DNA from: Candidatus Latescibacterota bacterium
GTDB taxonomy: Bacteria > Latescibacterota > UBA2968 > GCA-2709665
Length of the DNA: 33,119 nucleotides
Direction: 5' to 3'
Assembly: GCA_963662665.2 (NCBI GenBank)
Contig: CAXXJS010000004.1
Coordinates: 1-33,119, forward strand
Shown: positions 14,259-32,512 of the stretch, in pieces
Position numbering within the stretch: position 1 is the stretch's first letter
Layout: every line of letters starts with the position of its first letter
Made by a program: the position numbers and the translations under genes
The notes under the pieces: model-generated
Seen by the model: only the letters and a program-made list of their open reading frames with translations
What the model was told of the DNA's origin: nothing
Databases searched by the model: none

Positions 14259-14336
14259 ATCGTGACCTCTCCCTCCGGTCCCCAAGAAGCGGCAAGAGGT
14301 GAGTAGACGGGAGATGATATGAGTGACTGAAGAACG

Positions 14337-14461
14337 GGTAGACGTAAGACGGGAGAGGGTAGAGATTCCCAGCCCCGTACGGTTTCATTTCTTGCCGTAG
14401 GCATAAAGGAAGACTCAATCTGGCAAAGACGTCATCTACCGTCTCACCTCTCCCGTCTCAC
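14337..14461. repeat. Two inverted arrays of four degenerate heptamers
   Basis: GGTAGAC GTAAGAC GGGAGAG GGTAGAG (14337-14364) faces ATCTACC GTCTCAC CTCTCCC GTCTCAC (14434-14461). Confidence 0.55.
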
Positions 14462-14490
14462 CGCCACCGGACAAGATAGGAGATCTTGTG

Positions 14491-17233: not shown

Positions 17234-20200
17234 ATGCGACGTTCCATCTGTCGACTTGTTTCGCTAAGCGGAATGGGAGCGATGTTCATTGTGACAGTGA
17301 GTCTCATCCTCTGCCCGCTATTGTACCGTGACGTTTTTGCCCAGAATGCGGACGAACACCCGCCGTTCTGTGAGCCCATTGATTTCTCGCGGATGCACCC
17401 CGAGGGTTCGGATGCCGCGGCGAAGCGGGCGTTCAGCCTGAACACGGGCGATCCGCGGACGGTACGGGTGATCTACTTCGTACCCAATGACCGTTCGTTT
17501 TCCGCCACCGTGGAGGACTCGATAAAGAGGGCGGTGCGGCAGGTTCGCACGTTTTTCGCTGAACAAATGAAGGCGCAAGGCTTCGGTCTCAATGCCATCA
17601 ACATTGAAGCCGGCGACGATGGCGATCCGCTGATCCACCGCGTTTCGGGCCGGCACAACGACGACCACTACGCCGACGGTACGCACTTCACCGTCTTCAG
17701 TGAGATCCGGCAGAATTACGACACCCGTGCGAACATCTATATCGCCTTTGTCGACAATGGCCGCAGGTTTACCCCGCGAGGAGGTCGAAACGGGAAAACA
17801 GGCGGAGAGGCATCCATGCGCGTGGATTCTGACTGGCAGACCGTGGCGCATGAACTGGGACACGGGTTCGGGCTGCACCACGACTTTCGTAATGATGCGT
17901 ACGTGATGTCGTATGGAAACGAACCGGACAGTTTATCACAGTGCGCCGCACATTTCCTTTCCGTACATCCATACTTTAATCCGGGGATAACAACCGAATG
18001 GACTGGTAGTCCCGCCGTCGAACTCATTTCATCGCCCAGATTTCAACCGAACGCGGAAGATATCACGGTTCAATTCAAAGTGGCGGATACTGACGGGCTT
18101 CACCAGATGATCCTTTTTGCTACGACTCCACTTATAAACTGGGGTGGCGGGTCCCCAGAAGTGAAGGCGTGGCGCGGAATGGCGAAGGAGGGAAATGTTG
18201 TCGTAGGCTTCGATTACCAACGCGATGCTGTGGGAATGATACAAAGCCCTGATTTGGAGAAGATTCACGTCAACGCGGTAGACTCGGATGGAAATGTCGG
18301 GCTGGCATGGTTCAACCTCGTAGGCGATTCGCCATATCATTACGCCTCATTTGTGGGGCATTCGCATTGGGTCTTCAGCGTGTTGTTCTCGCCGGACGGA
18401 AGGGCCGTGGCTTCCGGTTCATACGATAATACGATGCGGCTCTGGGACGTCGCCACGGGCAAGACTCTTTCCACCCTTTCGTATTCAAGCTCTATTGTTT
18501 CGATGGCGTTTTCGTCCGACGGGACGACCATCGCTTCGGGGCTGGACGATGGAATTGTCCTACTATCGGACGTCGCGACGGGCAAACACATCACGACGCT
18601 CCAGGGGCATACGGATGACGTCCGGTCAATAGCGTTTTCGCCCGATGGATCCACCCTTGCATCCGGGTCATACGACAACACGATCAAGCTGTGGAACGTT
18701 GGCGCGGGAGAGGCAATTTCCACACTCGTGGGTCATACCGACGGGGTGCCGTCGGTGTTGTTCGCTCCTGACGGGAAATTGCTGGCTTCCAGGTCATTGG
18801 ACAATACGGTAAGGCTCTGGGACGCGGTGACTGGCACCAGCCTTGCCACGCTTCCGCATCCAAATCCAGTCACTTCGGTGTCTTTTTCGCCCGATGGGGC
18901 GACTCTCGCTTCCGGGGCGGACGATAACAACGTCCGTCTGTGGGCGGTTGCTACAGGAGAACTCATCGACACTTTTAGGGGGCACGCGCGTGGAGTCACT
19001 TCGGTGTCTTTTTCGCCCAATGGGAAGATTCTAGCGTCAGGGTCATTCGATAAAACAGTCAGGCTGTGGAGAACAGATGAGGGAAAGGCCATCGCCACAC
19101 TGCAGGGCCATGAAAATGGGATCACCAGATTGTTGTTTTCGCCTGATGGAACGCTTTTGGCTTCAGCGTCTTGGGACCATACTGTGAAGTTATGGGAAGT
19201 TATCACGGGCGCGAGTCCTGCTACCTTTCGACATACGGAAACGGCCGCTTCAGTATCGTTTTCGCCGGATGGGAGATTCCTCGCCACTTCGGATAACAAA
19301 AAGGTCGAGTTATGGGATACGTCCGCGTGGACCCTGCCGCGTGCGCAAACACTGACGATCATTTCAGGCGACAACCAGGAAGGCGCAACCGGAGGTGTAT
19401 TGGCAAACCCATTGATCGTGGAAGTAGGAGATCAGTTCGGCGAACCCCTGGCGGGTGCGCAGGTTACGTTTACGATCATTGCAGGCGATGGAAGCCTCAG
19501 CAGCGGTTTCACAACACAGAATGCCACAGCCGGTCCCGACGGCAGGGCGCAGGTTTTCCTCACCCTCGGTTCCAATCCCGGACGGAATGCCGTCAGGGCA
19601 TCCATCGCCGAACTCGTAGTGGAAACCTTCAACGCCGTGGGTCTTGGGTCTCCGGTCATTGACAATAACGCCTTGGATATTCCGAGGTTGCATCTGCCGC
19701 TCGGGGCCTCCCTGCGTCTTGGAAAGGGCGCCATTGGTGAGAGCCAAAGGGCGGTTGCCTTTTCGCCGGACGGAAGGTCTGTTGCCGTTGCAAGTGGTAT
19801 CGGTGTTTGGCTCTACCCCATCGGAGCCCCGGAAAGAGTCACGCTGCTGCCCTCGAATGTCGTCCATTCGGTGTCCTTTTCGCCGGACGGCAAAACGCTT
19901 GTCTCATCCGGAGGGTGGCGTAGCGATGGCGAGGTCAGGCTGTGGGACGTGGCCACAGAAACCTATAACCGCATACCCATGCAAGAGGGTGACCTTACTA
20001 ATCTATTGCTATCACCGGACGGAAGAACCCTCGCCTACTCCGGAGGCGTGACCCTTAAATTACGGGACGTGACGGCGGGCAATGACGTGACGATCCTGGG
20101 GACGTATGGAGCGTTTGTGAACCATCCGACATGTGTCACGTTTTCTCCGGATGGAGCCACCGTCGCTTCTGGGCACAACGACGGGACAATCAGGCTGTGG

Positions 20201-21673
20201 GATGTAGCGACGCACAACATTATCTCCACCCTGGAGGGTCATCGTCGTAATATCGACTCCGTAACCTTTTCTCCTGACGGGAGAACCCTCGCGTCGGCCT
20301 CCGCTGACGGCACGGTCAGGATGTGGGACGTCGCAACGGGCATAATGTCCGTCACAGTGCGCGATGAGTCGCAGCCCGTTAGTGTGGCGTTTTCGCCAGA
20401 TGGCACGACCCTCGCGTCCGGCTGGTGGGATGGAAACGTCACATTGTGGGACGTGTCGGCACGACGAAATGTCGCAACGTTCTATGGTCACGGGGACATT
20501 GTTCAAGCTGTTTCATTTTCCCCGCGGGGAGGGACTCTTGGCACCGCATCTGTGGATGGTACAGTCCTACTCTGGGACCTGGCCACGGGTAATGCCACCA
20601 CTCTTACCGGGCATTCGGCAGAGGTTACGGGTATGGCATTCTCGCCGGACGGTGCAACGCTTGTTTCCCGTTCCATGACGAGCATGAATAAGGTCGAGTT
20701 ATGGGACGTTGAAAAGGGCCGGATGATCGCAACGCTTGGCGATCGAGAGTGCGCGCCGATCCGGTCAATATCCATTTCTTCCGATGGGACGACCCTCGCA
20801 AACGCATCGTTTGACGGGACGGTCACATTGTGGGATTTGGACGCTGGCAGCACTGTTGCCACGTTGCCACATTCCTTCGAAGTCATCTCGGTTTCCATTT
20901 CGCCCGATGGGGCGACCTTGGCCGCGGGGGATGCTGAAAGAATGGTCCACCTCTGGGACCTTAAGACTGAAGCGAAAATCAAAACGCTTTCCGGCCTCAG
21001 TCGTCCCGCTACAAGTCTGCTTTTCTCGCGGCAGGGTGCTACCCTCGCTGCGGGAACGTCCGGCGGAGCGATCAGGCTCTGGGACGTCGTGACGGGCGCC
21101 ACCATCCACGGCCTTGAAGGACACGCAAGATCGGTCCGCTCCATGGCCTTTTCAAAGGACGGGAAAACCCTGGCTACCGGTACCTACCAGGGTACGGTCA
21201 AGCTGTGGGATCTGGTCACGGGCACCGCCACGGCGACTCTGAAAGTAGGGGTCCCTTCGAGTGTGGCATTTTCTCCTGACGTGACGATGTTCGCCACTGG
21301 TACGCAGGATAAGCTGGTCAGACTATACGACCTGTTAACCGGCGAAGTTATCGCCACTCTTGAAGGGCACAATCACAACGTGGCCAGCGTGTTGTTTTCG
21401 CCCAGCGGCAAGACACTTGCGTCGGGGTCACGTGATGGCACGATCCTGCTGTGGGACTTGGCGCCGTACAGTGGATCTGAAACTCCCAATCCTGATTTCA
21501 ATGGCGATGGCGCAGTTGGTTTTGCCGACTTCATTCAATTCGCCGCGAATTTCGGACTGAGCCACGGCGCCGCGGATTATGACGGACGGTACGATCTGGA
21601 CAACGACGGCGAGGTGGGATTTTCGGACTTTCTGATATTTGCCCGGGACTTCGGAAAAACCGTAGGGGAATGA
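17234..21673 (+). CDS. Secreted multidomain protein: zinc metallopeptidase + 8 WD40 + Ig-like (Big_1-type) + 14 WD40 + dockerin-like EF-hand tail
   Basis: AGGAGGT RBS; N-terminal hydrophobic segment; HELGHGFGLHH and Met-turn YVMSYG; GH...FSPDG...LWD repeats; 'ISGDNQEG..GAQVTF..GRAQ' Ig domain; 'DFNGDGAVGFADF..DLDNDGEVGFSDF' tail. Confidence 0.9.
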   Translation: MRRSICRLVSLSGMGAMFIVTVSLILCPLLYRDVFAQNADEHPPFCEPIDFSRMHPEGSDAAAKRAFSLNTGDPRTVRVIYFVPNDRSFSATVEDSIKRAVRQVRTFFAEQMKAQGFGLNAINIEAGDDGDPLIHRVSGRHNDDHYADGTHFTVFSEIRQNYDTRANIYIAFVDNGRRFTPRGGRNGKTGGEASMRVDSDWQTVAHELGHGFGLHHDFRNDAYVMSYGNEPDSLSQCAAHFLSVHPYFNPGITTEWTGSPAVELISSPRFQPNAEDITVQFKVADTDGLHQMILFATTPLINWGGGSPEVKAWRGMAKEGNVVVGFDYQRDAVGMIQSPDLEKIHVNAVDSDGNVGLAWFNLVGDSPYHYASFVGHSHWVFSVLFSPDGRAVASGSYDNTMRLWDVATGKTLSTLSYSSSIVSMAFSSDGTTIASGLDDGIVLLSDVATGKHITTLQGHTDDVRSIAFSPDGSTLASGSYDNTIKLWNVGAGEAISTLVGHTDGVPSVLFAPDGKLLASRSLDNTVRLWDAVTGTSLATLPHPNPVTSVSFSPDGATLASGADDNNVRLWAVATGELIDTFRGHARGVTSVSFSPNGKILASGSFDKTVRLWRTDEGKAIATLQGHENGITRLLFSPDGTLLASASWDHTVKLWEVITGASPATFRHTETAASVSFSPDGRFLATSDNKKVELWDTSAWTLPRAQTLTIISGDNQEGATGGVLANPLIVEVGDQFGEPLAGAQVTFTIIAGDGSLSSGFTTQNATAGPDGRAQVFLTLGSNPGRNAVRASIAELVVETFNAVGLGSPVIDNNALDIPRLHLPLGASLRLGKGAIGESQRAVAFSPDGRSVAVASGIGVWLYPIGAPERVTLLPSNVVHSVSFSPDGKTLVSSGGWRSDGEVRLWDVATETYNRIPMQEGDLTNLLLSPDGRTLAYSGGVTLKLRDVTAGNDVTILGTYGAFVNHPTCVTFSPDGATVASGHNDGTIRLWDVATHNIISTLEGHRRNIDSVTFSPDGRTLASASADGTVRMWDVATGIMSVTVRDESQPVSVAFSPDGTTLASGWWDGNVTLWDVSARRNVATFYGHGDIVQAVSFSPRGGTLGTASVDGTVLLWDLATGNATTLTGHSAEVTGMAFSPDGATLVSRSMTSMNKVELWDVEKGRMIATLGDRECAPIRSISISSDGTTLANASFDGTVTLWDLDAGSTVATLPHSFEVISVSISPDGATLAAGDAERMVHLWDLKTEAKIKTLSGLSRPATSLLFSRQGATLAAGTSGGAIRLWDVVTGATIHGLEGHARSVRSMAFSKDGKTLATGTYQGTVKLWDLVTGTATATLKVGVPSSVAFSPDVTMFATGTQDKLVRLYDLLTGEVIATLEGHNHNVASVLFSPSGKTLASGSRDGTILLWDLAPYSGSETPNPDFNGDGAVGFADFIQFAANFGLSHGAADYDGRYDLDNDGEVGFSDFLIFARDFGKTVGE

Positions 21674-22932: not shown

Positions 22933-23007
22933 TCACCTCGCAATCACTGTCATATTGAGTCAAGCGGTCTGAAGGTGGGGCGGACATTCCTGTCTGCCCA
23001 CATCGAT
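22933..23007. repeat. 75-bp direct repeat, copy 1, with REP-like hairpin GTGGGGCGGACA-TTCC-TGTCTGCCCAC
   Basis: 64 of 75 positions identical to 23737-23811 by manual ungapped alignment; the last 38 bp are identical. Confidence 0.85.
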
Positions 23008-23099
23008 GTCCTCCTGTCGGAAAAGAGAAATAAGGAAGAGCACACCGCCAGTTTTTCCGTTCCCTATTCGCGTCGAAGTCGCGTCAACACCTCGCCATC

Positions 23100-23186
23100 A
23101 CTCCCCCCTTGAGGGGGAGTCGCAGAAGCCGAGCCGATCCCTGAGCTTGTCGAAGGGCCGGCGACGGCTGATGCGGTGGGGGGTGC
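23100..23186. repeat. Composite REP-like element (ACTCCCCC-CTTGA-GGGGGAGT hairpin + CCCTGAGCTTGTCGAAGGG core)
   Basis: Hairpin at 23100-23120; core at 23139-23157 matches 3558-3576. Confidence 0.65.
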
Positions 23187-23736: not shown

Positions 23737-23811
23737 TCACCTCGCAATCACCGATATGCTGACGTAGGCAGTTTGAAGGTGGGGCGGACATTCCTGTCTG
23801 CCCACATCGAT
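23737..23811. repeat. 75-bp direct repeat, copy 2
   Basis: Matches 22933-23007; lies 8 nt beyond the stop of the minus-strand MNT gene. Confidence 0.85.
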
Positions 23812-23819
23812 ACGTCTGT

Positions 23820-24128
23820 TCAATCAACGCGGGTTAGTTTCGCCTCGCGTTCAAGGAATGACGCCATTTCGGGATCTGCGTCAAGGTCGATAAGGTCCAC
23901 AGATCGCGCGAGTTCCAGCAGCAACTTGCCCTGGAGTTTATAAAACATGCTTGCGGGACACCCCTTGACCGCGAAATCGATATCCGATCGCGACGTGCCG
24001 CTCCCATCTGCGACGGAGCCAAAGAGATAGACAGCTTCGCATCCACCTGCTTTCAATATGTCTAATCCCCGAACCAAGTCGTGCCGCACCGTGTCTGGTA
24101 CACCCTCAATGTCTGTAACTTTAGCCAT
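23820..24128 (-). CDS. Minimal nucleotidyltransferase (MntA-like antitoxin), orphan
   Basis: 'VYLFGSVADG..RSDIDFAV' and 'SVDLIDL' Pol-beta motifs; AGGGG RBS; no HEPN partner gene follows. Confidence 0.85.
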   Translation of the reverse strand: MAKVTDIEGVPDTVRHDLVRGLDILKAGGCEAVYLFGSVADGSGTSRSDIDFAVKGCPASMFYKLQGKLLLELARSVDLIDLDADPEMASFLEREAKLTRVD

Positions 24129-24221: not shown

Positions 24222-26909
24222 CTAATTTATCACGTTTGCCGTAACGCCGCAATATAAATGGGTCGACAAGGGATCCGGCATCCCGCGCACCTCTGCGAGA
24301 AACTCGTCCGATAACACGGAGATATCCGGCTTGTCCAATCCCGCGGCTGCAAAGATGTCCATCACGCCTTCTGAAGCCACGGCTTTGGAGACGATCTGTC
24401 GGACGGCCAGGTCCAACTCCTCCTGTGTATGCGTCACGCCGTCAGCTCGCTTGGACAGCGCCGTCCTCACCGCCTGAAAGAATGCCACGTCGTCCCGGAT
24501 GCGCGTCGTCTCGTCGTGAGGCACGGCAAGTGTGAACGCCTGGGATAGCGCACGCACCGCGTTCAGGCATCGCTCTTTGCCGTCCTCCTGGGCGAGGATG
24601 TGCTCCTGCGCGGCGGGTAGCAGATTCAATCGCTCCGTTGGTGTGCCGGCGGTCCAAGCCGTCCAGTCGAAGCCATGGAATAGACCGCTACACACCTCGT
24701 ATTTCTCCAGCATTACCGCCACGGCTTCCTTCTTGTCCAGAGCCGTAATACCAGTGCCGCCGCTCTCGGTGTACGTCGCCAACGCTTGTCGCAGGTCATG
24801 CGACAAACCGAGATAGTCTACTACCAACCCACCTGGCTTGTCCTTGAACACGCGGTTCACACGGGCGATGGCTTGCATCAGCCCGTGCCCGCGCATCGGC
24901 TTGTCCACGTACATCGTATGAAGGCTGGGCGCGTCGAAACCCGTCAGCCACATGTCCCGCACCAGGACCACGCGTAGCGGATCGTCAGGGTCTCTGAACC
25001 GGTTCGCCAGCGCCTCCCTCCGCGGCTTGTTGCGGATGTGCGGCTGCCAATCGAGCGGGTCGGAAGCGGAGCCGGTCATCACGACCTTGATGGCTCCCTT
25101 GTCGTCAGCGTCATCGTGCCAGCCGGGCCGCAATCGGACCAGTTCGCGGTAGAGGTCGATGCAGATGCGCCGGCTCATACAGACGACCATCGCCTTGCCT
25201 TCCAGCGCCTCCAGCCGCTGCTCGAAGTGGTCCACAATATCCTCGGCAATCTGCCGGACCCGCTTCGCCGCGCCGACCACCGCTTCCAACTGCGCCCACT
25301 TCGTCTTGAGCTTCTCCCGGCGCTCTACCTCTTCGCCCTCGGTGGCCTCCTCGAATTCCGGATCGATCTTCGGCTTTTCGCGCTCGTCCAGGGTAAGCTT
25401 CGCCAGTCGGCTCTCGTAATAGATCGGCACCGTGGCCCCATCCTGAACGGCGCTCTGGATGTCGTAGATGCTGATGTAGTCGCCGAACACGGCCCGCGTA
25501 TTGGCGTCCTGAAGCTCGATGGGTGTACCTGTAAAGCCAACGAATGACGCATTTGGCAGCGCGTCTCGCATATGACGGGCAAACCCGTCGATGAAATCGT
25601 ATTGGCTTCGGTGCGCCTCGTCCGCAATCACCACGATATTGCGCCTATCCGATAGCTCGGGATGGGTATCGCCCTTCTCTTCCGGGAAGAACTTCTGGAT
25701 GGTAGTGAAGACTACGCCGCCTGCGTTCACCGACAGTTTGCTCCTCAGGTCGGCCCGGCTCTCCGCCTGTGTCGGCGGCTGGCGCAGCAGGTCCTGGCAC
25801 CGGGAGAACGTGCCGTAAAGCTGGTCGTCCAGGTCGTTCCGGTCCGTGAGTACCACCACGGTCGGGTTTTCCATTGCCGGTTCGCTGATGATGGCCCCGG
25901 TGTAGAAGGCCATTGTGAGGCTTTTCCCCGACCCCTGGGTGTGCCAGACCACGCCGACGCGCCGGTCGCCCGGTTCGCCGCCCGGTTGCCGCCCCGTCTC
26001 GTAACGACCTCCGTCTTCGGCGGATTCTGCGGTCAATCTTTGTAGCTTCGCCGCTCGTAACGTCTCGTCAACTGCAACTCTCACGGCGTGGAACTGGTGA
26101 TAGCCCGCCATCTTCTTTTCCAGCGCGCCGCTGCCGTCGTCATCGAAAACGATGAAGTCGCGAACGAGCGCCAGGAAGCGGTTCTGATCAAAGACGCCTT
26201 CCAGCATCACCTGGAGTTCGGTCAATTGCTTATCCGCAAGCTTCTCACCGGCAACCGTGCGCCAGGGTTTGAACCACTCCTTTCCCGAGGTCTGCGTACC
26301 GATGCGGGCTTCGTTCCCGTCCGAGACCATCAACACTTCGTTCATCGAAAACAGCGAGGACAATTCGGCCTTGTACGTCTGAAGCTGGTTCCATGCTGTC
26401 CAGATCGTGGCGTCCTCGTCGGCCGGATTCTTGAGTTCGATCACACCCAGAGGTAAACCGTTTAAAAACAGCACGACGTCCGGTCTTCGGTTGTTCTTGT
26501 TCTCCGTGACCGTGAACTGATTCACCGCCAGCCAGTCGTTATTGTCGGTGTTTTCGAAATCCATCACCCGAACCTGATCGCCTCGCACGCGTCCGTCCGT
26601 ATCCCGATACTCGACTTCAACGCCGTTCACGAGCATCCGGTGAAACGCGCGGTTTCGGGCTTCCAGTGTAGATCCTTCGGGATGGGTCAACCTGCGGCAG
26701 GCATCGTCCAGGGCGGACATGGGCAGGGAGGGGTTCAATTCAGTGAGGGCGCCGCGAAGCCTGTGCTCAAGGACCACCTGTCGGTAGTCATCGCGCTCTG
26801 CGTCAGGCGTCTCCGGCGCAATATCGGGACCGTGCAGGACCTGCCAACCGAGACCCGAAAGCCACTCAAGAGCTGCCTGTTCAACGTCGGCTTCGGTGAG
26901 GGTGGTCAT
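24222..26909 (-). CDS. hsdR: Type I restriction endonuclease subunit R, C-terminally truncated (probable pseudogene)
   Basis: Nuclease motif '[21 protein letters not shown]', Walker A 'HTQGSGKS', 'DEAHRSQY', 'MWLTGFDAP', 'QAIARVNR'. Recognisable similarity ends at '[10 protein letters not shown]' (24276), followed by 17 unrelated residues. Confidence 0.93.
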
Positions 26910-26912
26910 GCG

Positions 26913-27263
26913 TCACTCCCGGATACGAACACGCGAATCTTCGACGATCCAAAGCTGTCCTTGAAGAGAGGAAACCAACTCACCAAGCAGGGCGCTCCCA
27001 ATGTCCAGCAAATGATCTCTCGATTGCCTGCTGGGTCGAATAACCACTATCCCAGGATACAACTCCGGCGGGTAGGACCTGATGTCGCTGAAATCCAGGT
27101 CCAACGTTACCAGGATTCGGCCTTCACGCCCGCAAACGGCGGCGAGGTTGGGATCGTCCGTCCCGATCATTTGCTGGTCAAACACGTTTATCGCGTCGTG
27201 CCCGGCTTCCACAAAGAGCGCTACCATCTCCGCAGGCAGATTTTCGTCGAATTTGAACCGCAT
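26913..27263 (-). CDS. DUF5615 family PIN-like toxin (VapC45-like)
   Basis: 'MRFKFDENLP', 'GHDA', 'GTDD', 'GRILVTLDLDF', 'PGIVVIR'. Confidence 0.88.
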   Translation of the reverse strand: MRFKFDENLPAEMVALFVEAGHDAINVFDQQMIGTDDPNLAAVCGREGRILVTLDLDFSDIRSYPPELYPGIVVIRPSRQSRDHLLDIGSALLGELVSSLQGQLWIVEDSRVRIRE

Positions 27264-27270
27264 GGCTTCC

Positions 27271-27498
27271 TCAGCGCGGTAAAGGTACCATACGCTCTCG
27301 GGCTAATTCCGCCGCGTAGTGTAGGGCAGCATGCACTCCCTCTATCGGTACTGAGGGATAACTCTTCGTAATGTCCTCCACCGTCAGACCATCGGCCAGA
27401 CAGTCCAGTACGACGGTGACCATAACCCGAGTGCCGGTAATGCAAGCCTTGCCGTGGCAAACGTCCGGCTTGCTCGATATGTAGTCTTGCCATCTCAT
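27271..27498 (-). CDS. DUF433 family antitoxin (VapB45-like)
   Basis: 'PDVCHGKACITGTRVMV..L..LADG....I...YP...V.AALHYAAEL'; AGGAGG RBS before MRWQD. Confidence 0.9.
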   Translation of the reverse strand: MRWQDYISSKPDVCHGKACITGTRVMVTVVLDCLADGLTVEDITKSYPSVPIEGVHAALHYAAELARERMVPLPR

Positions 27499-27499
27499 G

Positions 27500-27643
27500 C
27501 TAACCCTCCTGCGCATTCATTGTTATAGAGCCCAACCCCAACAGCCACAGATCATCCTGAGTGTTCGGATTGTCTATGACGGCCCGGTTCGGATTCTTCT
27601 TCGTCAGCTCGGAGACCACGTTCGTATCTAGGAGATAGCCGCT
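27500..27643 (-). pseudogene. VapC (PIN) toxin N-terminal remnant
   Basis: Not in the ORF track. Manual translation SGYLLDTNVVSELTKKNPNRAVID..NTQDDLWL..* is a typical VapC start 'YLLDTNVVSE'; start codon lost and frame ends after 47 codons. Confidence 0.8.
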
Positions 27644-27837
27644 ACGGGACGCGCGTGTGAGGGTGCCACGGTCGCAATAGCCACCGTGGCGCCATCCAGA
27701 GACATGAACTCCACCACGAAAGCTGCTTTATCGCGATGGAAGTGGATAATGGTGCCCACGTCGCCCGGTTTTAATTCTTTCCCCTCGTCACCATGAACAT
27801 CAGCGGTAAGCACGATCTGCTCATTTTCCTTGAACAC
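27628..27837 (-). CDS. DUF4926 domain protein
   Basis: 'IVLTADV....LKPGDVGTIIH....AFVVEFMSLDGATVAIATV'; AGGAGG RBS, GTG start; 3' end runs into the vapC remnant. Confidence 0.82.
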   Translation of the reverse strand: MFKENEQIVLTADVHGDEGKELKPGDVGTIIHFHRDKAAFVVEFMSLDGATVAIATVAPSHARPVAAIS

Positions 27838-27840
27838 TTC

Positions 27841-28026
27841 TCACCTCCTGCGTGGGTGCGCCGTAATGAACCTGGGATGCACACTCCCTGGGTCGACTTG
27901 CCAGACGGACCCTTTTACCGGATTACGCCCGTCCGGCGTCTCCATCCTGCCGTCCACATGATAGCGCGATCCGTATGCGGTCTCCACAACTCGGGCGACC
28001 ACACGGGATGCGGAATTAAATCTCAA
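27841..28026 (-). pseudogene. DUF6883-like protein, C-terminal half only
   Basis: 'VETAYGSRYHVDGRMETPDGRNPV..VWQVD.GS..PRFITAHP'; upstream of DUF4926; N-terminal half replaced by an hsdR 5' fragment. Confidence 0.72.
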
Positions 28027-28085
28027 TAGGCCACCTGCCAGTCAAGGGCCGCCTGCTCAACGTCGGCTTCGGTGAGGGTGGTCAT
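28023..28085 (-). pseudogene. hsdR: hsdR 5' fragment, copy B (20 codons)
   Basis: [20 protein letters not shown]; first 48 nt differ from the full hsdR start at 4 positions. Confidence 0.88.
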
Positions 28086-28092
28086 GATTTTC

Positions 28093-28305
28093 CTATGCCA
28101 ACATCAAGCCTTCGCCCTTGGGTTCCGGGATCGGGTCGCCGAATTCACGGGCCGTTTCCAGCCACAAGTCCACGGCCTGATTGATGTTCTCCAACGCCGC
28201 CTCTTGGGTATTGCCGTGGGCCGTGCACCGGGGAAGTTCGGGCACTTCGGCCACAAAGGCTCCATCTTCGTTGCTCCAGTAAATGATAATCTCGTACTTG
28301 TGCAT
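28093..28305 (-). CDS. hicB: HicB family antitoxin (short form)
   Basis: 'YEIIIYWSNEDGAFVAEVPELPRCTAHGNTQEAALEN...WLETAREFGDPIPEP'. Confidence 0.9.
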   Translation of the reverse strand: MHKYEIIIYWSNEDGAFVAEVPELPRCTAHGNTQEAALENINQAVDLWLETAREFGDPIPEPKGEGLMLA

Positions 28306-28394
28306 TACTCGCCCCCTTCGAAATGGTGTCTCAGGACGACCTGCCGTACCTGTCTTACCTGATACGGCTTGCTACCATCCCGTTGAAGGTTTAA
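28305..28394 (-). pseudogene. hicA: HicA toxin C-terminal remnant
   Basis: Not in the ORF track. Manual translation LNLQRDGSKPYQVRQVRQVVLRHHFEGGE*; TAATG overlap with hicB; N-terminal GSH-containing part absent. Confidence 0.8.
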
Positions 28395-28397
28395 CCG

Positions 28398-28565
28398 TCA
28401 CACAAGACGGCCGGCACGGGCAGGAATCCGCCCTTCAACCACGCTGACGCTGTTTATATCTATGACAGCTTCATGTTCGCCGTACAGTGCGTGAAAATGA
28501 GGCGGATTGTGGTCGCGAAAATGCAGGCGAATGCTGATGCCGTAGAATCTACAGAGTTCAGGCAT
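28398..28565 (-). pseudogene. DUF4160 family protein, 3'-truncated (55 aa)
   Basis: Not in the ORF track. Manual translation MPELCRFYGISIRLHFRDHNPPHFHALYGEHEAVIDINSVSVVEGRIPARAGRLV*; 'DHNPPHFHA' motif; the usual Trp-containing C-terminal helices are missing. Confidence 0.85.
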
Positions 28566-28803
28566 CGCGGCTCTGCATTGTCTGCTTCACGCCAGGCATC
28601 ACTTCCTCAACAGGTTTGCCGGTGAGTTGCATGTAAAGAGCGTTCGCACAGAGTTCAATGTCGTCGTCCCAGGCTATGGCTCTGTGGGAAGGCATATGCA
28701 CATTCTCGAAATATCCCGGCTCGTACCAGATTTTGAACACGCCCTTTCCGGCGAGATGAGACAGGTCAATCTCATCGGCGACGCCATCTGCATATCGAAG
28801 CCG
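28558..28803 (-). pseudogene. DUF2442 family protein, 5'-damaged
   Basis: 'RLRYADGVADEIDLSHLAGKGVFKIW..PGYFENV....AIAWDDDIELCANALY'; ATGCCTGA overlap with DUF4160; native start replaced by hsdR fragment C. Confidence 0.8.
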
Positions 28804-28840
28804 GGGCCGTCGCCTCGGCGGACTGCCTGTCGATTCGGTG

Positions 28841-28999
28841 CCGAGGCCTCCGCTCGAGCACGACCTGCCCGTAGTCCTCGCGCTCGGCATTGGGCATCAT
28901 ATCCGGCGCGATATATGGATCGTGCAGGATATGCCAGCCGAGATCCGAGAGCCACTCAAGAGCCGCCTGCTCAACGTCAGCTTTGACGAGGGTGGTCAA
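28841..28999 (-). pseudogene. hsdR: hsdR 5' fragment, copy C (about 53 codons)
   Basis: [53 protein letters not shown] aligns with [52 protein letters not shown]. Confidence 0.9.
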
Positions 29000-29736
29000 A
29001 GAGTGGTCTCGTGTTCTGTACCGGTGATGTTTGGATCCACCGAGTCCAGCGCTTCCTCGATTAGATCAAACACTAACTTGAAATGCTCAAAGTCCTGTGC
29101 AGTGCCATTCTCACAAAGCCAATCACATAAATTCGTCTTCTCACTACCGTTGACAGTCCAATTCTCAGGTATGGTAATTAGCTTACCATCCTCATCCGTG
29201 CCACTATGCTCTTCCTCGGTCCTGCTGAAAAATGCAGGTTTATGATGACGAGCTATTTCCAACGTCGATTTACTGAACAGGTTTTCGATGCCGTTTTTTA
29301 CTGGGCTTGACTCCAGCAATGGGATGGTCCGCTGCAGTAGCTTGCCTTTATCGCCGGGAGGTCTTTCGGTATCACTGTCAAACAAGAGCAATACCTGTTG
29401 GGGCAGTATCTCAGTTAGTGGTAAGATGGAGTCTTTCCATATCTTTGCTAGATTGCCTTTTCCACCACCGTACCGAACCTCGAATCTATCCAAAACCGCG
29501 TCCTTCCCAAGCAATCGCGAGGCTTCTTCTATGTACTTTTTGTCAGTTTTGCCTTCAAGGAATACAAATGGCCTTTGTGATTTCTCAATCATCGTTTGAA
29601 GGTCGTCATGGAATTTACGTGTCGAAGCAAATGCCTGATACGCATCACCAAATTCACTGAACTCTTCAGGGCTGATCTGCCGCCCTTTAGGCAACCGATA
29701 AATCAAGAAGCCATCTTCCCCAAAGACCTTGTTCAT
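28996..29736 (-). pseudogene. C-terminal TOPRIM-like nuclease half of an IS-interrupted ATPase-TOPRIM (OLD-like) gene
   Basis: 'VFLEGKTD', 'GGGKGNL', 'LLFDSD', 'GIENLF'; in frame with the ATPase half once the IS is removed. Confidence 0.78.
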
Positions 29737-29742
29737 ACCTAG

Positions 29743-31374
29743 GAGTCTGCGCCGCAGGAAAATTCATTTCAATGGACATGTAGTTGTAGGTATAATGGGT
29801 CGTGTAGTTGGTATATGTCAAGGGTATCGTTGTGTGTTATGTCAGGGGAGGGAGCGATCCATGCCGACAACGTTTCGACCGTATCACCCGGACCAGATAT
29901 TGCTGTTGGCGCCGGATCTTCGGGAGTGGGTGCCTGAAGGTCATCTGTCGCACCAGGTGAGCGATCTGGTGGATTCCCTGGATCTGGGGTCGTTCTACGC
30001 GCCCTATGAAGGCGATGGTCGTCGCAACGCGCCATATGATCCATCGATGATGTTGAAGGTATTGATCTATGGGTACGCGACGGGAGTGTATTCGTCTCGA
30101 GCGATCGCTGGGAAGCTGGAGGAGGACGTGGCGTTTCGTATGTTGGCGGCGGGCAATTTCCCACAACACCGGACGATCTGCGAGTTTCGGCGTCGTCACC
30201 TGGAAGATTTCGGGCGTTTGTTCGTGGAGGTGGTTGGTGTGGCACGGGAGATGGGCCTGGTACGTTTCGGGACGTTATCTTTAGACGGCACGAAGGTACG
30301 AGCGAAGGCCAGCAAGCGCAAGGCCATGAGTTACGAGCGGATGTTGAAGGAACAGGCTCGTCTGGAGAAAGAGATCGGGGCGTTGCTTTCGGGTGCTGTG
30401 TCGATTGATGCCGAGGAGGATGCACGTTACGGCGTGGATGTTCGTGGCGACGAGTTGCCGGTCGAGTTGCAGCGCAGGCAGGCTCGTCTGGCGGCGATCA
30501 GGGCGGCGAGGGAGCGTCTGGAAGCATCGCAACGAGCCGTCGACGATGCGCGCGGGCGCAAACCGGGTCAGAAGCGCAACCCGAAGGGCGGGCGGCCTTA
30601 CAAAAGAGCCTATGGCGAGCCCGACCCGAAGGCTCAGAGCAACTTCACGGACCCCGAGTCTCGGATCATGAAGACGAGCGCGGAGGGGTTCCAGCAGTGC
30701 TACAACGCGCAGACGGTGGTGGACGCCGAGCGTCAGATCATCGTGGCTGTGCATCTGGGGTCACAGGCCACCGATCAGGGCTTTATGCTCCCCTTGCTGG
30801 ATGGTGTGCAAGAGACATTCGGGGTCAAGCCGGACGCGGTTCTGGCGGATGCGGGCTACTGCAACGAGGAGGACCTGGCCACGCTTGAGGAGCGTGGCAT
30901 TGATGGTTACGTGGCGCTGGGGCGGGAGGGCAAGGAAAAGGTGGACGTCGATTCGGAGACGCTTCCGGCGACCCATCGCATGGGCGAGAAGCTCACCAGC
31001 CCGGAAGGTCGGGGCCTGTATGCGAAGCGCAAGTGGCTCTCGGAGGCGCCCAACGGATGGATCAAGGAGGTATTGGGCTTCCGGCGCTTCAGCTTCCGGG
31101 GGCTGGAAAAGGTGCGTGCCGAGTGGGATCTGGTCTGCCTCGCGTTGAACGTCAAGCGGATGGCAGCGTTGTCGATGTGTTGAAGCATGGGTTCGGGTGT
31201 CCTGTCCTTATGGACTCGACATACGGGAAACCACGATCCCTGGAATCTCGCCCTCAACACGCCTGCCTGCAACGATCACCGTACCCAAAACTCATCATAC
31301 CACTCCCAACATAACGACCAACCCGACTCACGGACACACCTCGCCCTTTGTAAAAACTCCTGCGGCGCAGACTC
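29743..31374 (+). mobile_element. IS1182-family insertion sequence, 1632 bp
   Basis: Perfect 17-bp terminal inverted repeats GAGTCTGCGCCGCAGGA (29743-29759) and TCCTGCGGCGCAGACTC (31358-31374); CTAG duplication at 29739-29742 and 31375-31378. Confidence 0.93.
29861..31183 (+). CDS. IS1182-family DDE transposase (440 aa)
   Basis: 'PYDPSMMLKVLIYGY..GVYSSRAI', 'SLDGTKVRA', 'NFTDPESRIM', 'YNAQ', 'LADAGY', 'RKWLSEAPNGWIK..GFRRFSFRG'; GGAG RBS. Confidence 0.92.
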   Translation: MPTTFRPYHPDQILLLAPDLREWVPEGHLSHQVSDLVDSLDLGSFYAPYEGDGRRNAPYDPSMMLKVLIYGYATGVYSSRAIAGKLEEDVAFRMLAAGNFPQHRTICEFRRRHLEDFGRLFVEVVGVAREMGLVRFGTLSLDGTKVRAKASKRKAMSYERMLKEQARLEKEIGALLSGAVSIDAEEDARYGVDVRGDELPVELQRRQARLAAIRAARERLEASQRAVDDARGRKPGQKRNPKGGRPYKRAYGEPDPKAQSNFTDPESRIMKTSAEGFQQCYNAQTVVDAERQIIVAVHLGSQATDQGFMLPLLDGVQETFGVKPDAVLADAGYCNEEDLATLEERGIDGYVALGREGKEKVDVDSETLPATHRMGEKLTSPEGRGLYAKRKWLSEAPNGWIKEVLGFRRFSFRGLEKVRAEWDLVCLALNVKRMAALSMC

Positions 31375-32512
31375 CTAGGACAAACAGAGGCGAATGAGTA
31401 GTGGCGATAAATTGAACTTTAGGGAACATCTGAATCAGTCTAGGTAGGACTTCATACTGATGTACCGTATGTAAGTGCAGATCTATCTCATCCACCAACA
31501 CAACCCCCCGTATGCTATCAGCACCTGAGAATGTCGATCCGCTCTGGTCAGAGTCGCGGAGAATGGACAAGAACAGGTTAAGTAGAGAAGTTTCCCCACT
31601 CGACAATTGGAAAATGTTGGGAACTATGGTCAGTGGGTCCGCCTCTAGTGAAACTACCCTATTATTGCGCGGCCCAATTCCAAATCTCGCATTCTGATTA
31701 TTCGTTACATTTCGAGCAACTCGAAGAGCAATTTGATATATGGTAGTCGCATTACCGGTAGGGCCCAATCGCACCGGCAATGAAACTGCCTCACCTTCAC
31801 CTGTAACTGGAAATCGTACCGGAGCAATTCGGGTCTCTAAAACAGCTTGGTCGTAAATGACACTAAACAGCCAGTTCTGGTTGTCGTGAAGCGGAGACGA
31901 CGCAATAACCTTCCGTTCAGTGGAGCCGGCAAGCTGCTTTAGGTGCATATGTTGCGCTTGCGCAGTGAGGCTTTCTTCGTTCAGCCAGGCAGGATCCTCA
32001 GAACGGTCGAACGGAAAGTACAATACGCAATTTGTAGAGAATATCTCCTTGATCTTGGTCTTCTGCGCTTCAGTGGTTGTTATGTTTGAGGCATAATGGT
32101 CGTTAGTGTTTGGTTCCATAGTTTTCCACATACTTTCGGCTCGTATCCCAGAAATTTCAATGGGGACATCGGAGTAGTCCATCTTATTTCGCCTTAGCCG
32201 CAATTCGCTGACATGCAAGCCATCCTCAAAGTCTACTCTGGCAAAGTAATGTTCATGCTCCGGCATGATATATTCACTGCTCCGAAGTTTATATACTTTC
32301 CCTGATTCTACTTCAGGGGTTTCTTGAAATGCAACTCCTTTGGCCGCGATGAGCCCATTGACAATGTGGGATAAGAGTATGCTTTTCCCTGACCCGTTTT
32401 CGCCAACCAACACTACGGGTTTTGGAATCTGTCCGTCGATGTCGAAGGGAAATTCGATATCAAGCTTCTCAATGGGTCCGTAGTTTACCAGTTGAATACG
32501 TTTCGAATACAT
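31328..32512 (-). pseudogene. N-terminal ABC/AAA ATPase half of an IS-interrupted ATPase-TOPRIM gene
   Basis: Walker A 'GENGSGKS', signature 'LSSGE', Walker B 'VLVDEIDLHLH', H-loop 'TTHSP'. Native sequence ends at 31375; the remaining codons read into the IS. Confidence 0.88.

Follow-up and report, generated by a model that had tools for sequence, protein, structure and literature searches.

Recurrent hsdR 5' stubs between stacked cassette blocks in a type I restriction-modification locus and its relatives

Defence genes inside type I restriction-modification (R-M) loci have precedents. The gene prrC is embedded in such a locus (EcoSal review, PMC12707154), and DarTG2 of enteropathogenic Escherichia coli (EPEC) belongs to the defence or toxin-antitoxin (TA) genes that lie between hsdS and hsdR in the same orientation, at a site that its description names a potential recombination hotspot (PMC12255303). 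A further arrangement on record, insertion with long target duplication, consists of an R-M unit without a mobility gene between near-identical direct target repeats (Furuta, Abe and Kobayashi 2010, PMC2853133). Here, a stretch of 33,119 nucleotides of a Candidatus Latescibacterota bacterium (contig CAXXJS010000004.1 of assembly GCA_963662665.2; the whole stretch is called the window) was analysed. It would hold the hsdR-proximal end of a defence island lying within a type I R-M locus, and the start of hsdR recurs in it in the form of short fragments, called stubs in the following. That the slot between hsdS and hsdR collects defence genes is known; recurrent hsdR 5' stubs between stacked cassette blocks are new in the literature searched. 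The stubs point to a testable route by which defence genes could enter this slot without mobile-element machinery. From the joints we infer that the stubs are probably dead scars of recombination events, which would have connected cassette blocks from different alleles by one homologous and one illegitimate crossover.

The three hsdR starts of the window

The window is the entire contig C4 of a metagenome-assembled genome (MAG) of 66 contigs and 4.86 Mb (completeness 92%, contamination 5.4%), whose nearest relatives are labelled Candidatus Latescibacterota and Gemmatimonadota. The sequencing runs holding the stretch are labelled as sponge metagenome or with a coded organism. On the minus strand hsdR starts three times, at 26909 (the long gene, copy A, 24222..26909), at 28085 (stub B, a 20-codon open reading frame (ORF) at 28023..28085) and at 28999 (stub C, 28845..28999, comprising hsdR nt 1-155). 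Copy A begins 3 nt past the stop of a DUF5615 gene, stub B begins 7 nt past the stop of hicB, and the TTG start of stub C overlaps the stop of an ATPase gene as TTGA. A preliminary description of the window, made from its letters alone, had given these starts and spacings correctly and had proposed to search the genome with the first 150 nt of hsdR; this search of the 4.86 Mb retrieved just the same three places at E<0.3. Read from 32512 to 24222, the minus strand carries the ATPase gene, which is split by an insertion sequence (IS), stub C, a DUF2442-like gene, a DUF4160 gene, about 90 nt, hicB, stub B, a DUF6883 and a DUF4926 gene, a VapC-like remnant, a DUF433 and the DUF5615 gene, and finally hsdR.

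Copy B (28085-28037) is 92% identical to copy A over 50 nt, and 4 of 49 nt differ, every one at a third codon position as had already been described; the longest identical run of the two is 29 nt. Copy C (28999-28845) is about 80-85% identical to copy A over 97-157 nt, and stub C has an identity of 80% to the window's own hsdR and of 85% to the allele of a relative (G013; the genomes of relatives are numbered G, the compared loci L). Direct repeats of 49-155 nt are present in the window. As claimed before, both stubs break into another gene. Stub B consists of hsdR nt 1-49 and a few further hsdR bases beyond an 18-nt internal deletion, and then enters a DUF6883 gene in which about the first 59 of 110 profile positions are missing; stub C continues into a DUF2442-like gene from which, judged by L057, about 15 N-terminal codons have been lost. 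According to the alignment, the joint at 28023 arose by secondary loss of about 290 nt, because G009 and G012 have the same stub lineage before intact DUF6883-DUF4926 genes. The stub ORFs were also considered as translational couplers, given that the stop of stub B overlaps a TTG in the truncated DUF6883 ORF. For stub C and the stub of L075, however, no such coupling is seen, and this idea was rejected.

In principle, repeated starts could be produced by a chimeric assembly, in which strain variants were joined at the repeated hsdR start. The number of contigs and the contamination of the MAG would allow for this, and one run (X1) has variants with other sequence upstream of hsdR. However, mismatch-free contigs from runs of two studies bridge every repeat and every joint. 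Six runs of these two studies contain 97-99% of the sampled words of 26700-29100, and the contigs of three of them and of X1 were compared; the bridging evidence comes from Logan contigs and not from raw reads, and one of the runs is possibly the source sample. In run X3 the contigs with zero mismatches are record 10 (26088-27858), record 13 (27832-28541) and record 16 (28540-29700), and in run X5 these are record 21 (26881-28086) and record 23 (28059-29700). The contigs also span the junctions at 28023 and 28841, for which the preliminary description had proposed a check with reads. Run X1, which contains 24% of the sampled words, holds related sequence in different arrangements, with a loose end at 26910 and a joint skipping 26937-27262. 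It is a metagenome with several relatives and was not counted as strain-level evidence. In addition, the 29 nt of the longest identity shared by copies A and B count against a chimera, and the same architecture is found in closed chromosomes of relatives. An assembly chimera is thus extremely improbable and was rejected.

hsdR stubs and cassettes in related loci

The survey for stubs comprised 85 loci, namely the window, 14 regions and 70 deduplicated loci, of which 76 have at least 3 kb of upstream sequence. The upstream flanks covered extend up to 10 kb in the set of 70 loci and to about 13-16 kb in the 14 regions, and each locus was searched with its own HsdR on both strands (E<=0.01). This resulted in 31 secondary matches, 30 of which are located upstream on the same strand, in 25 of the 85 loci. 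All upstream stubs begin at residue 1-9, bar one that is cut by a contig end (n=30), and none of the 30 starts inside hsdR. Opposite-strand hsdR fragments are absent from the 85 loci, and the sole downstream fragment (1/31) covers residues 17-230 in L059. The stubs lie in the interval from hsdS to hsdR, at the borders of different defence or TA cassettes (DarTG, RhuM-Fic, AbiEii, ThsB-8xMP, PARIS-like ATPases). The preliminary description had expected varied cassettes together with repeated hsdR stubs in relatives, and with 25 of 85 loci and very different cassettes this has been borne out. The carriers are labelled as Nitrospira, Dehalococcoidia, Thermoanaerobaculia, Beta-, Gamma- and Deltaproteobacteria, Hyphomicrobiales, Auribacterota and the window's own group, and include closed chromosomes. 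A search of 60 relatives with the first 60 residues of HsdR found full-length genes accompanied, at a distance of a few kb upstream, by short matches on the same strand in G001, G003, G005, G010, G011 and G013 (genus g1), and short N-terminal matches also in G008, G016 and G057, some of them at loci without a full-length gene. At the nucleotide level, nine of the ten genus loci with this hsdR contain stubs while G007 has none, and further stubs in L052, L053, L058, L059 and L061 emerged from a nucleotide search of higher sensitivity.

In hsdR coordinates, the stubs end at nt 33-189 in 30 of the 34 usable rows and at 430, 481, 636 and 746 of about 3200 nt in the remaining four. This list omits L090 and L119, which are artefacts of the segment length used, and L057-9638, which is too weak, and a 21-nt mini-stub after hicB in G013 stands outside the 34-row table. 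The number of distinct joints is estimated by inspection, and not by formal clustering, at 25 or more. Some stubs are shared: the lineage of stub B, called the beta lineage, is present in four loci, L073 and L074 have the same stub, and L075 and L108 have a common joint. In E. coli, a distant nucleotide search with the stub-DarTG-hsdR segment of L074 found only the hsdR helicase core, with 64-67% identity in 129 of 5426 genomes; the one E. coli locus inspected is a compact hsdMSR without any cassette, which has no bearing on E. coli generally.

The stubs could also be what remained of tandem, once-complete hsdR genes or R-M units that collapsed by neutral deletion, with the 5' end spared by a selected gene just upstream. 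The internal deletions in stubs would agree with such a collapse, for example the 18 nt of the beta lineage or the direct joining of residues 1-88 to 308-376 in L063, as would the secondary deletion at 28023, the few long remnants of 430 to 746 nt, and the hsdS 3' remnants after stubs, which also fit a deleted tandem. However, a second full-length hsdR or an upstream remnant longer than 746 of about 3200 nt was found in none of the 85 loci within the flanks covered, and none of the relatives examined has tandem complete R-M loci; the preliminary description had named tandem loci collapsed by ordinary deletion, with no cassette variability, as a case against its own idea. Erosion should also often leave a piece at the original joint, yet no upstream fragment begins inside the gene. 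Moreover, the origin of the tandem itself needs the same kind of joint. For these reasons a collapsed tandem seems unlikely.

The loci of the same genus are syntenic in the order ligA, hsdM, accessory genes, hsdS, variable cassettes and hsdR. The accessory genes between hsdM and hsdS encode SLFN/AlbA_2-HATPase_c_4, HEPN, hicB and DUF559. The cassettes in the interval from hsdS to hsdR comprise PtuA-like ATPases, fused AriAB (PARIS-like) ATPases, a 512-aa PIN_4 protein, FRG-TPR, AbiJ_NTD4, ThsB_TIR with 8xMP, Mrr_cat, SIR2_2, an OLD-family ATPase with a UvrD helicase, and the small pairs of the window. One fused AriA-AriB gene (L060:5491-7140 in G010; PADLOC AriAB E=4.7e-55) is located directly before an hsdR stub. 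In other phyla, the content from stub to hsdR is DarT-DarG (L074), RhuM-Fic (L075, L083, L086, L108), AbiEii (L098), SLFN-HATPase_c_4 (L115), Fic and a deaminase-HATPase_c_4 protein (L117, L138), ThsB-8xMP (L126), ThsB alone (L139), and a helicase with a DUF559 domain (L141). The interval from hsdS to the stub carries other cassettes. In L114 and L106 RhuM-Fic is placed directly before hsdR, with no stub. Therefore, the combination of cassette and hsdR is a native adjacency, and a stub is the seam between two such units.

Upstream of the stubs the native junction is retained, and they are broken on their 3' side without exception. In L052 and L056, full-length hsdR follows the same hicB end as stub B does, and the DUF5615 end before the long hsdR is the one that precedes full-length hsdR in L051, L055 and L057, and a stub in L054. 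Compared with the adjacent gene, 18 stubs have 75-96% identity, and their differences at codon positions 1, 2 and 3 amount to 76:68:196 (196/340, or 58%, at third positions); the functional hsdR alleles of the genus differ by 207:142:890. The third-position bias implies that most of the divergence predates the truncation, and the numbers fit about two-thirds of allelic divergence and one-third of later decay. For 13 of the 18 stubs the hsdR of another genome matches better than the neighbouring one. In L062, the two ThsB-8xMP pairs flanking the stub share only 58% and 53% amino acid identity, which excludes a recent duplication at this locus. Taken together, the third-position bias, the better foreign matches and the pairs of L062 argue that the stubs derive from other functional alleles and not from recent local duplication. 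Some stubs carry stop codons and indels, and this decay argues for scars rather than maintained sites. The preliminary description had regarded the array as stacked units of an accessory gene and an hsdR start that were taken from different alleles, and the native junctions, the third-position bias and the variety of cassettes in relatives agree with this.

Further observations concern the R-M genes themselves. In-frame inserts of the DUF559/REase_MTES_1575 or GIY-YIG type are found often in hsdM and, in two loci, in hsdS, and they split the N6_Mtase match in two. Such endonuclease-type insert genes are L050:5045-7201, L053:14698-16569 (minus strand), L059:3123-5513, L054:5055-7295, L059:6748-8730 and, in the window's own genome, C20:136463-138658. 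The inserts could be of homing type and provoke breaks and recombination at the locus. In the loci of the same genus, the hsdS gene usually has an MNT-type nucleotidyltransferase (NTP_transf_2 / Polbeta) fused to its N-terminus. The fusion occurs under the labels of different phyla; examples are L051:8817-10484, L055:9797-11446, L057:12101-13744, L061:8072-9775, L090:7185-8795 and L126:5236-6888. L050 contains a HEPN-type gene (NTase_sub_bind) upstream of the fusion, with two other ORFs between. The HsdR proteins of L088, L090, L126, L130, L132 and L139 (Dehalococcoidia) and of L092, L093 and L097 (Caldilineaceae) share 81-84% amino acid identity with that of the window. The identity within the window's genus is 83-89% and thus barely above that of MAGs labelled as other phyla, which suggests a recent transfer of this R-M family between phyla.

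Possible routes of stub formation

Each stub would mark the right-hand border of a block that formerly had an hsdR of its own at its end, '...hicB-hsdR' and '...ATPase-hsdR' in the window, and blocks from different alleles of the same kind of locus would have been joined head to tail, with an illegitimate joint 3' of the stub. DNA arriving from a related locus could pair by homology with the conserved R-M genes upstream or with a cassette present in both. The far end of the donor would reach a short way into a diverged hsdR, which may be too little or too mismatched for RecA to complete homologous exchange. RecA is described to need a minimum of about 25-35 bp of identity, and strand exchange to fail beyond about 15-17% divergence, where homology-facilitated illegitimate recombination (HFIR) takes over (PMC6382021). 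The donor end would be joined at a microhomology somewhere in the resident array, and such an event would be HFIR. As outcome, the donor cassettes would be added before the resident ones instead of replacing them, and the start of the donor hsdR would be left as a scar. Later on, scars and adjoining cassettes may shrink through deletions, and blocks may be exchanged or lost when stubs recombine internally or with one another. A donor reaching further into hsdR would replace the resident cassettes without leaving a scar, and scars would therefore be 5'-only, short and diverged. A structure in which X-hsdR(1..n) is followed by Y-Z-hsdR needs a single non-homologous joint.

Several joints carry signs of recombination. 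The 18-nt deletion of the beta lineage is located between two TGGC repeats and is common to stub B, L054-13393, L053-13167 and L052-14256, although these stubs follow hicB, hicB, an ATPase gene and another sequence, respectively. The hicB segment of the window is 94% identical to G013, compared with about 85% for hsdR, and this segment ends 21 nt into stub B. The hsdR 5' end had been proposed to act as a recombination anchor. The different upstream partners of one stub lineage and the G013-like segment that ends inside stub B are in favour of this part of the preliminary description, while the decay of the stubs is against it. A 5-nt microhomology, CTGGC, is present at joint L054-12196, and microhomology is possible at the window joint 28023. 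In L061 an hsdS 3' remnant follows a 42-nt stub. In L057 the short stretch after a 170-nt stub resembles an hsdS 3' end by eye but was not recovered by the hsdS search. Concatenation of two hsdS-to-hsdR intervals would leave such a remnant after a stub. The idea that these remnants regularly accompany stubs was rejected, because a search with seven hsdS C-termini found them directly after a stub only in L061; extra hsdS 3' copies away from stubs are present in L144 and downstream in L061. As a mirror image, L053 and L054 contain extra hsdM 3' remnants downstream of hsdM. Stub ends at hsdR nt 48-50, beside TGGC, are found in seven rows, and L059 shows the reciprocal break at this place, which adjoins a REP-like palindrome and a transposase-like remnant (the latter read from the translation). 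A palindromic REP-like element with transposase-like ORF remnants borders the partial hsdR copy in G016 (L059, oriented, 17300-17640) and is also found at the stub joint of G011 (L051).

Alternatively, 'cassette + first n bases of hsdR' might circularise and integrate by one homologous crossover in the resident hsdR start (Campbell-type). The stub would then be a working landing pad, the array would grow beside hsdR like an integrase-free integron, and the outcome would be an insertion with long target duplication. The observed end structure is exactly that of a single crossover, and the occurrence of one stub lineage with different upstream partners would fit as well. The shortest stubs of 21, 33 and 41 nt are close to the 25-35 bp minimum described for RecA (PMC6382021), and R-M units flanked by 30-500 bp direct repeats of the target have been described (PMC2853133). 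However, longer homology should integrate more often, yet the stubs are mostly shorter than 200 nt. Duplicated repeats should also begin identical, whereas the differences look allelic, which a later replacement of hsdR could explain, and the stubs decay, with stops and indels. Such a single-crossover integration is considered quite improbable. The first 50-180 bases of hsdR might in addition be regarded as portable homology, a RecA-dependent and integrase-free counterpart of the integron attachment site, with stubs as working landing pads and the hsdM 3' end in a mirror-image role. It is doubtful that the sequence serves in this way, but if it did, type I R-M loci in many phyla would take up, stack, exchange and lose their defence and TA cassettes through it.

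Joining of allelic blocks by one homologous and one illegitimate crossover is the reading that we prefer, and some points weigh against it. A circularised fragment with a single crossover, or eroded tandem copies, would yield the same end structure. A donor end that is too short for homologous exchange agrees poorly with the four long stubs (430-746 nt), which share 80-89% identity with the adjacent gene. Microhomology is clear at one joint only, and the cluster of breaks at nt 48-50 is not predicted by a purely length-limited model. In addition, many stubs were inherited or transferred together, so that there are fewer events than stubs and the 85 loci are not independent.

Genes of the window, state of the locus and known systems

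The long hsdR copy (24222..26909, minus strand) encodes 895 aa with Pfam matches to HSDR_N (E=1.4e-51), SWI2_SNF2, ResIII, T1R_D3-like and, in part, T1RH-like_C, of which only profile positions 2-166 of 329 are covered. Homology to all relatives, whose proteins have 1048-1133 aa, stops at residue 877-878, and the protein ends 17 residues later, so that it is shorter than its relatives by at least about 170 residues. It is probably a member of the family that has lost its 3' end and is inactive. An MNT-type nucleotidyltransferase gene (23820-24128) occupies the place of the missing 3' end. All genes from hsdR up to the ATPase gene are encoded on the minus strand. The DUF5615 (PIN-like) gene (26913..27263; Pfam E=9.9e-21) is a putative toxin gene, and its DUF433 partner (27271..27516; E=2.8e-20) the putative antitoxin gene. 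The VapC-like gene (27500..27631), named from its translation, is an N-terminal remnant cut on both sides; its homologue in G013 is preceded by an operator-like palindrome and a Phd-like antitoxin, again named from the translation. The small DUF4926 gene (27628..27837; Pfam E=1.7e-12), partner of DUF6883, has 90% nucleotide identity to G009 and G012, and the DUF6883 gene (27841..28026), which has lost its 5' end, covers Pfam positions 60-109 of 110, while the full gene in G009 encodes 146 aa. Upstream of stub B follow the hicB-like antitoxin gene (28093..28305; Pfam HicB_lk_antitox / UPF0150) and a short DUF4160 gene of 55 aa (28398..28565; Pfam positions 1-49 of 65). The DUF2442-like gene (28558..28802) is 90% identical in nucleotides to L057 3916-4317, which overlaps a 96-aa DUF2442 gene at L057 4073-4363; the window ORF itself has no Pfam match.

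The C-terminal part of the ATPase gene (28996..29736, minus strand) has a PADLOC match to RT-Toprim (E=1.5e-6), and its likeness to TOPRIM is weak. In L053 it is joined to the N-terminal part, a PtuA-like ABC ATPase (31380..32512, minus strand; Pfam AAA_21 / AAA_15; PADLOC PtuA E=5.6e-30). The IS that splits the gene (29738..31379, plus strand) has 1642 bp, 22-nt perfect inverted ends and Pfam matches to DDE_Tnp_1 and DUF772. The housekeeping part of the contig encodes a 1479-aa WD40-repeat protein consisting of almost nothing but repeats (17234-21673). Short elements at 23097-23183 (about 87 nt) and 14327-14465 (about 135 nt), which resemble repetitive extragenic palindromes (REP) or miniature inverted-repeat transposable elements (MITE), occur in dozens of copies across the contigs with 73-100% identity. 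A 75-nt direct repeat (22933-23007 / 23737-23811) flanks the genes just downstream of hsdR.

The ligA-hsdM-hsdS part of this genome is located on contig C20, apart from the window contig. There, hsdS is cut at C20:133042 by the same IS (copy C20:131402-133042) that splits the ATPase gene of the window; this copy and those at 7 other places make up eight further copies in the genome, with 99.5-100% identity. Several cassette genes of the window are truncated. Judged from these disruptions the R-M system of this genome looks dead. Because hsdS and the ATPase gene are cut by the IS, the hsdR 3' end is lost and cassettes are truncated, the array is a fossil record of past joins and not a working R-M operon. 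For annotation this means that short 'hsdR-like' ORFs at such loci are relics. The short hsdR 5' stubs provide a simple, searchable scar that marks the border between cassette blocks and shows the blocks to originate from different alleles, which in several cases probably belonged to different phyla. They could delimit defence cassettes not known so far, and help to date and trace their exchange. In general, the pattern suggests how defence islands inside type I restriction loci get pieced together.

HFIR is known from laboratory transformation, and to our knowledge it has not been invoked before for building defence islands. It combines a one-sided homologous anchor with a joint at short microhomology and takes effect beyond about 15-17% divergence (PMC6382021); the hsdR loci may have these features in common with it, but for them it is deduced from the joints alone. 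The preliminary description had proposed an integron-like growing array. Like integrons, the hsdR loci have same-strand arrays of variable cassettes at a fixed platform, with a recurring short element between them. Unlike integrons, they are without IntI, attI or attC, their joints lack site specificity, and what recurs is a piece of a gene. The window ORFs scanned contain no Pfam match to an integrase or recombinase, the sole mobility gene being that of the DDE transposase, and no attC-like fold was found, as the DNA folds of the three hsdR starts have z values of 0.36, -0.11 and -0.35 compared with shuffles. In addition, stub ends are not at a fixed position but spread over hsdR nt 21-746, with a cluster at 48-50, and the array of the window is decaying. 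In a strict sense the proposal of an integron-like array is not supported, and the likeness is only in outcome.

Insertion with long target duplication resembles the hsdR loci in having a gene unit without mobility gene and direct repeats of tens to hundreds of bp. In contrast, the repeat is here the start of hsdR, the copies differ allelically by 4-25%, and accessory cassettes are stacked inside the R-M locus. Near-identical repeats, which characterise the described cases, are not found, given the identities of 75-96% and the 58% of differences at third positions. Relatives with a cassette and hsdR but without stub exist (G007, and L114 and L106 for RhuM-Fic), yet the right-hand junction is the native junction of gene and hsdR. 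Repeated hsdR 5' stubs between cassettes, or several stacked blocks per locus, were not found in the titles, abstracts and passages of the literature searched. Like the locus with the embedded DarTG2, L074 carries DarT-DarG, here just upstream of hsdR.

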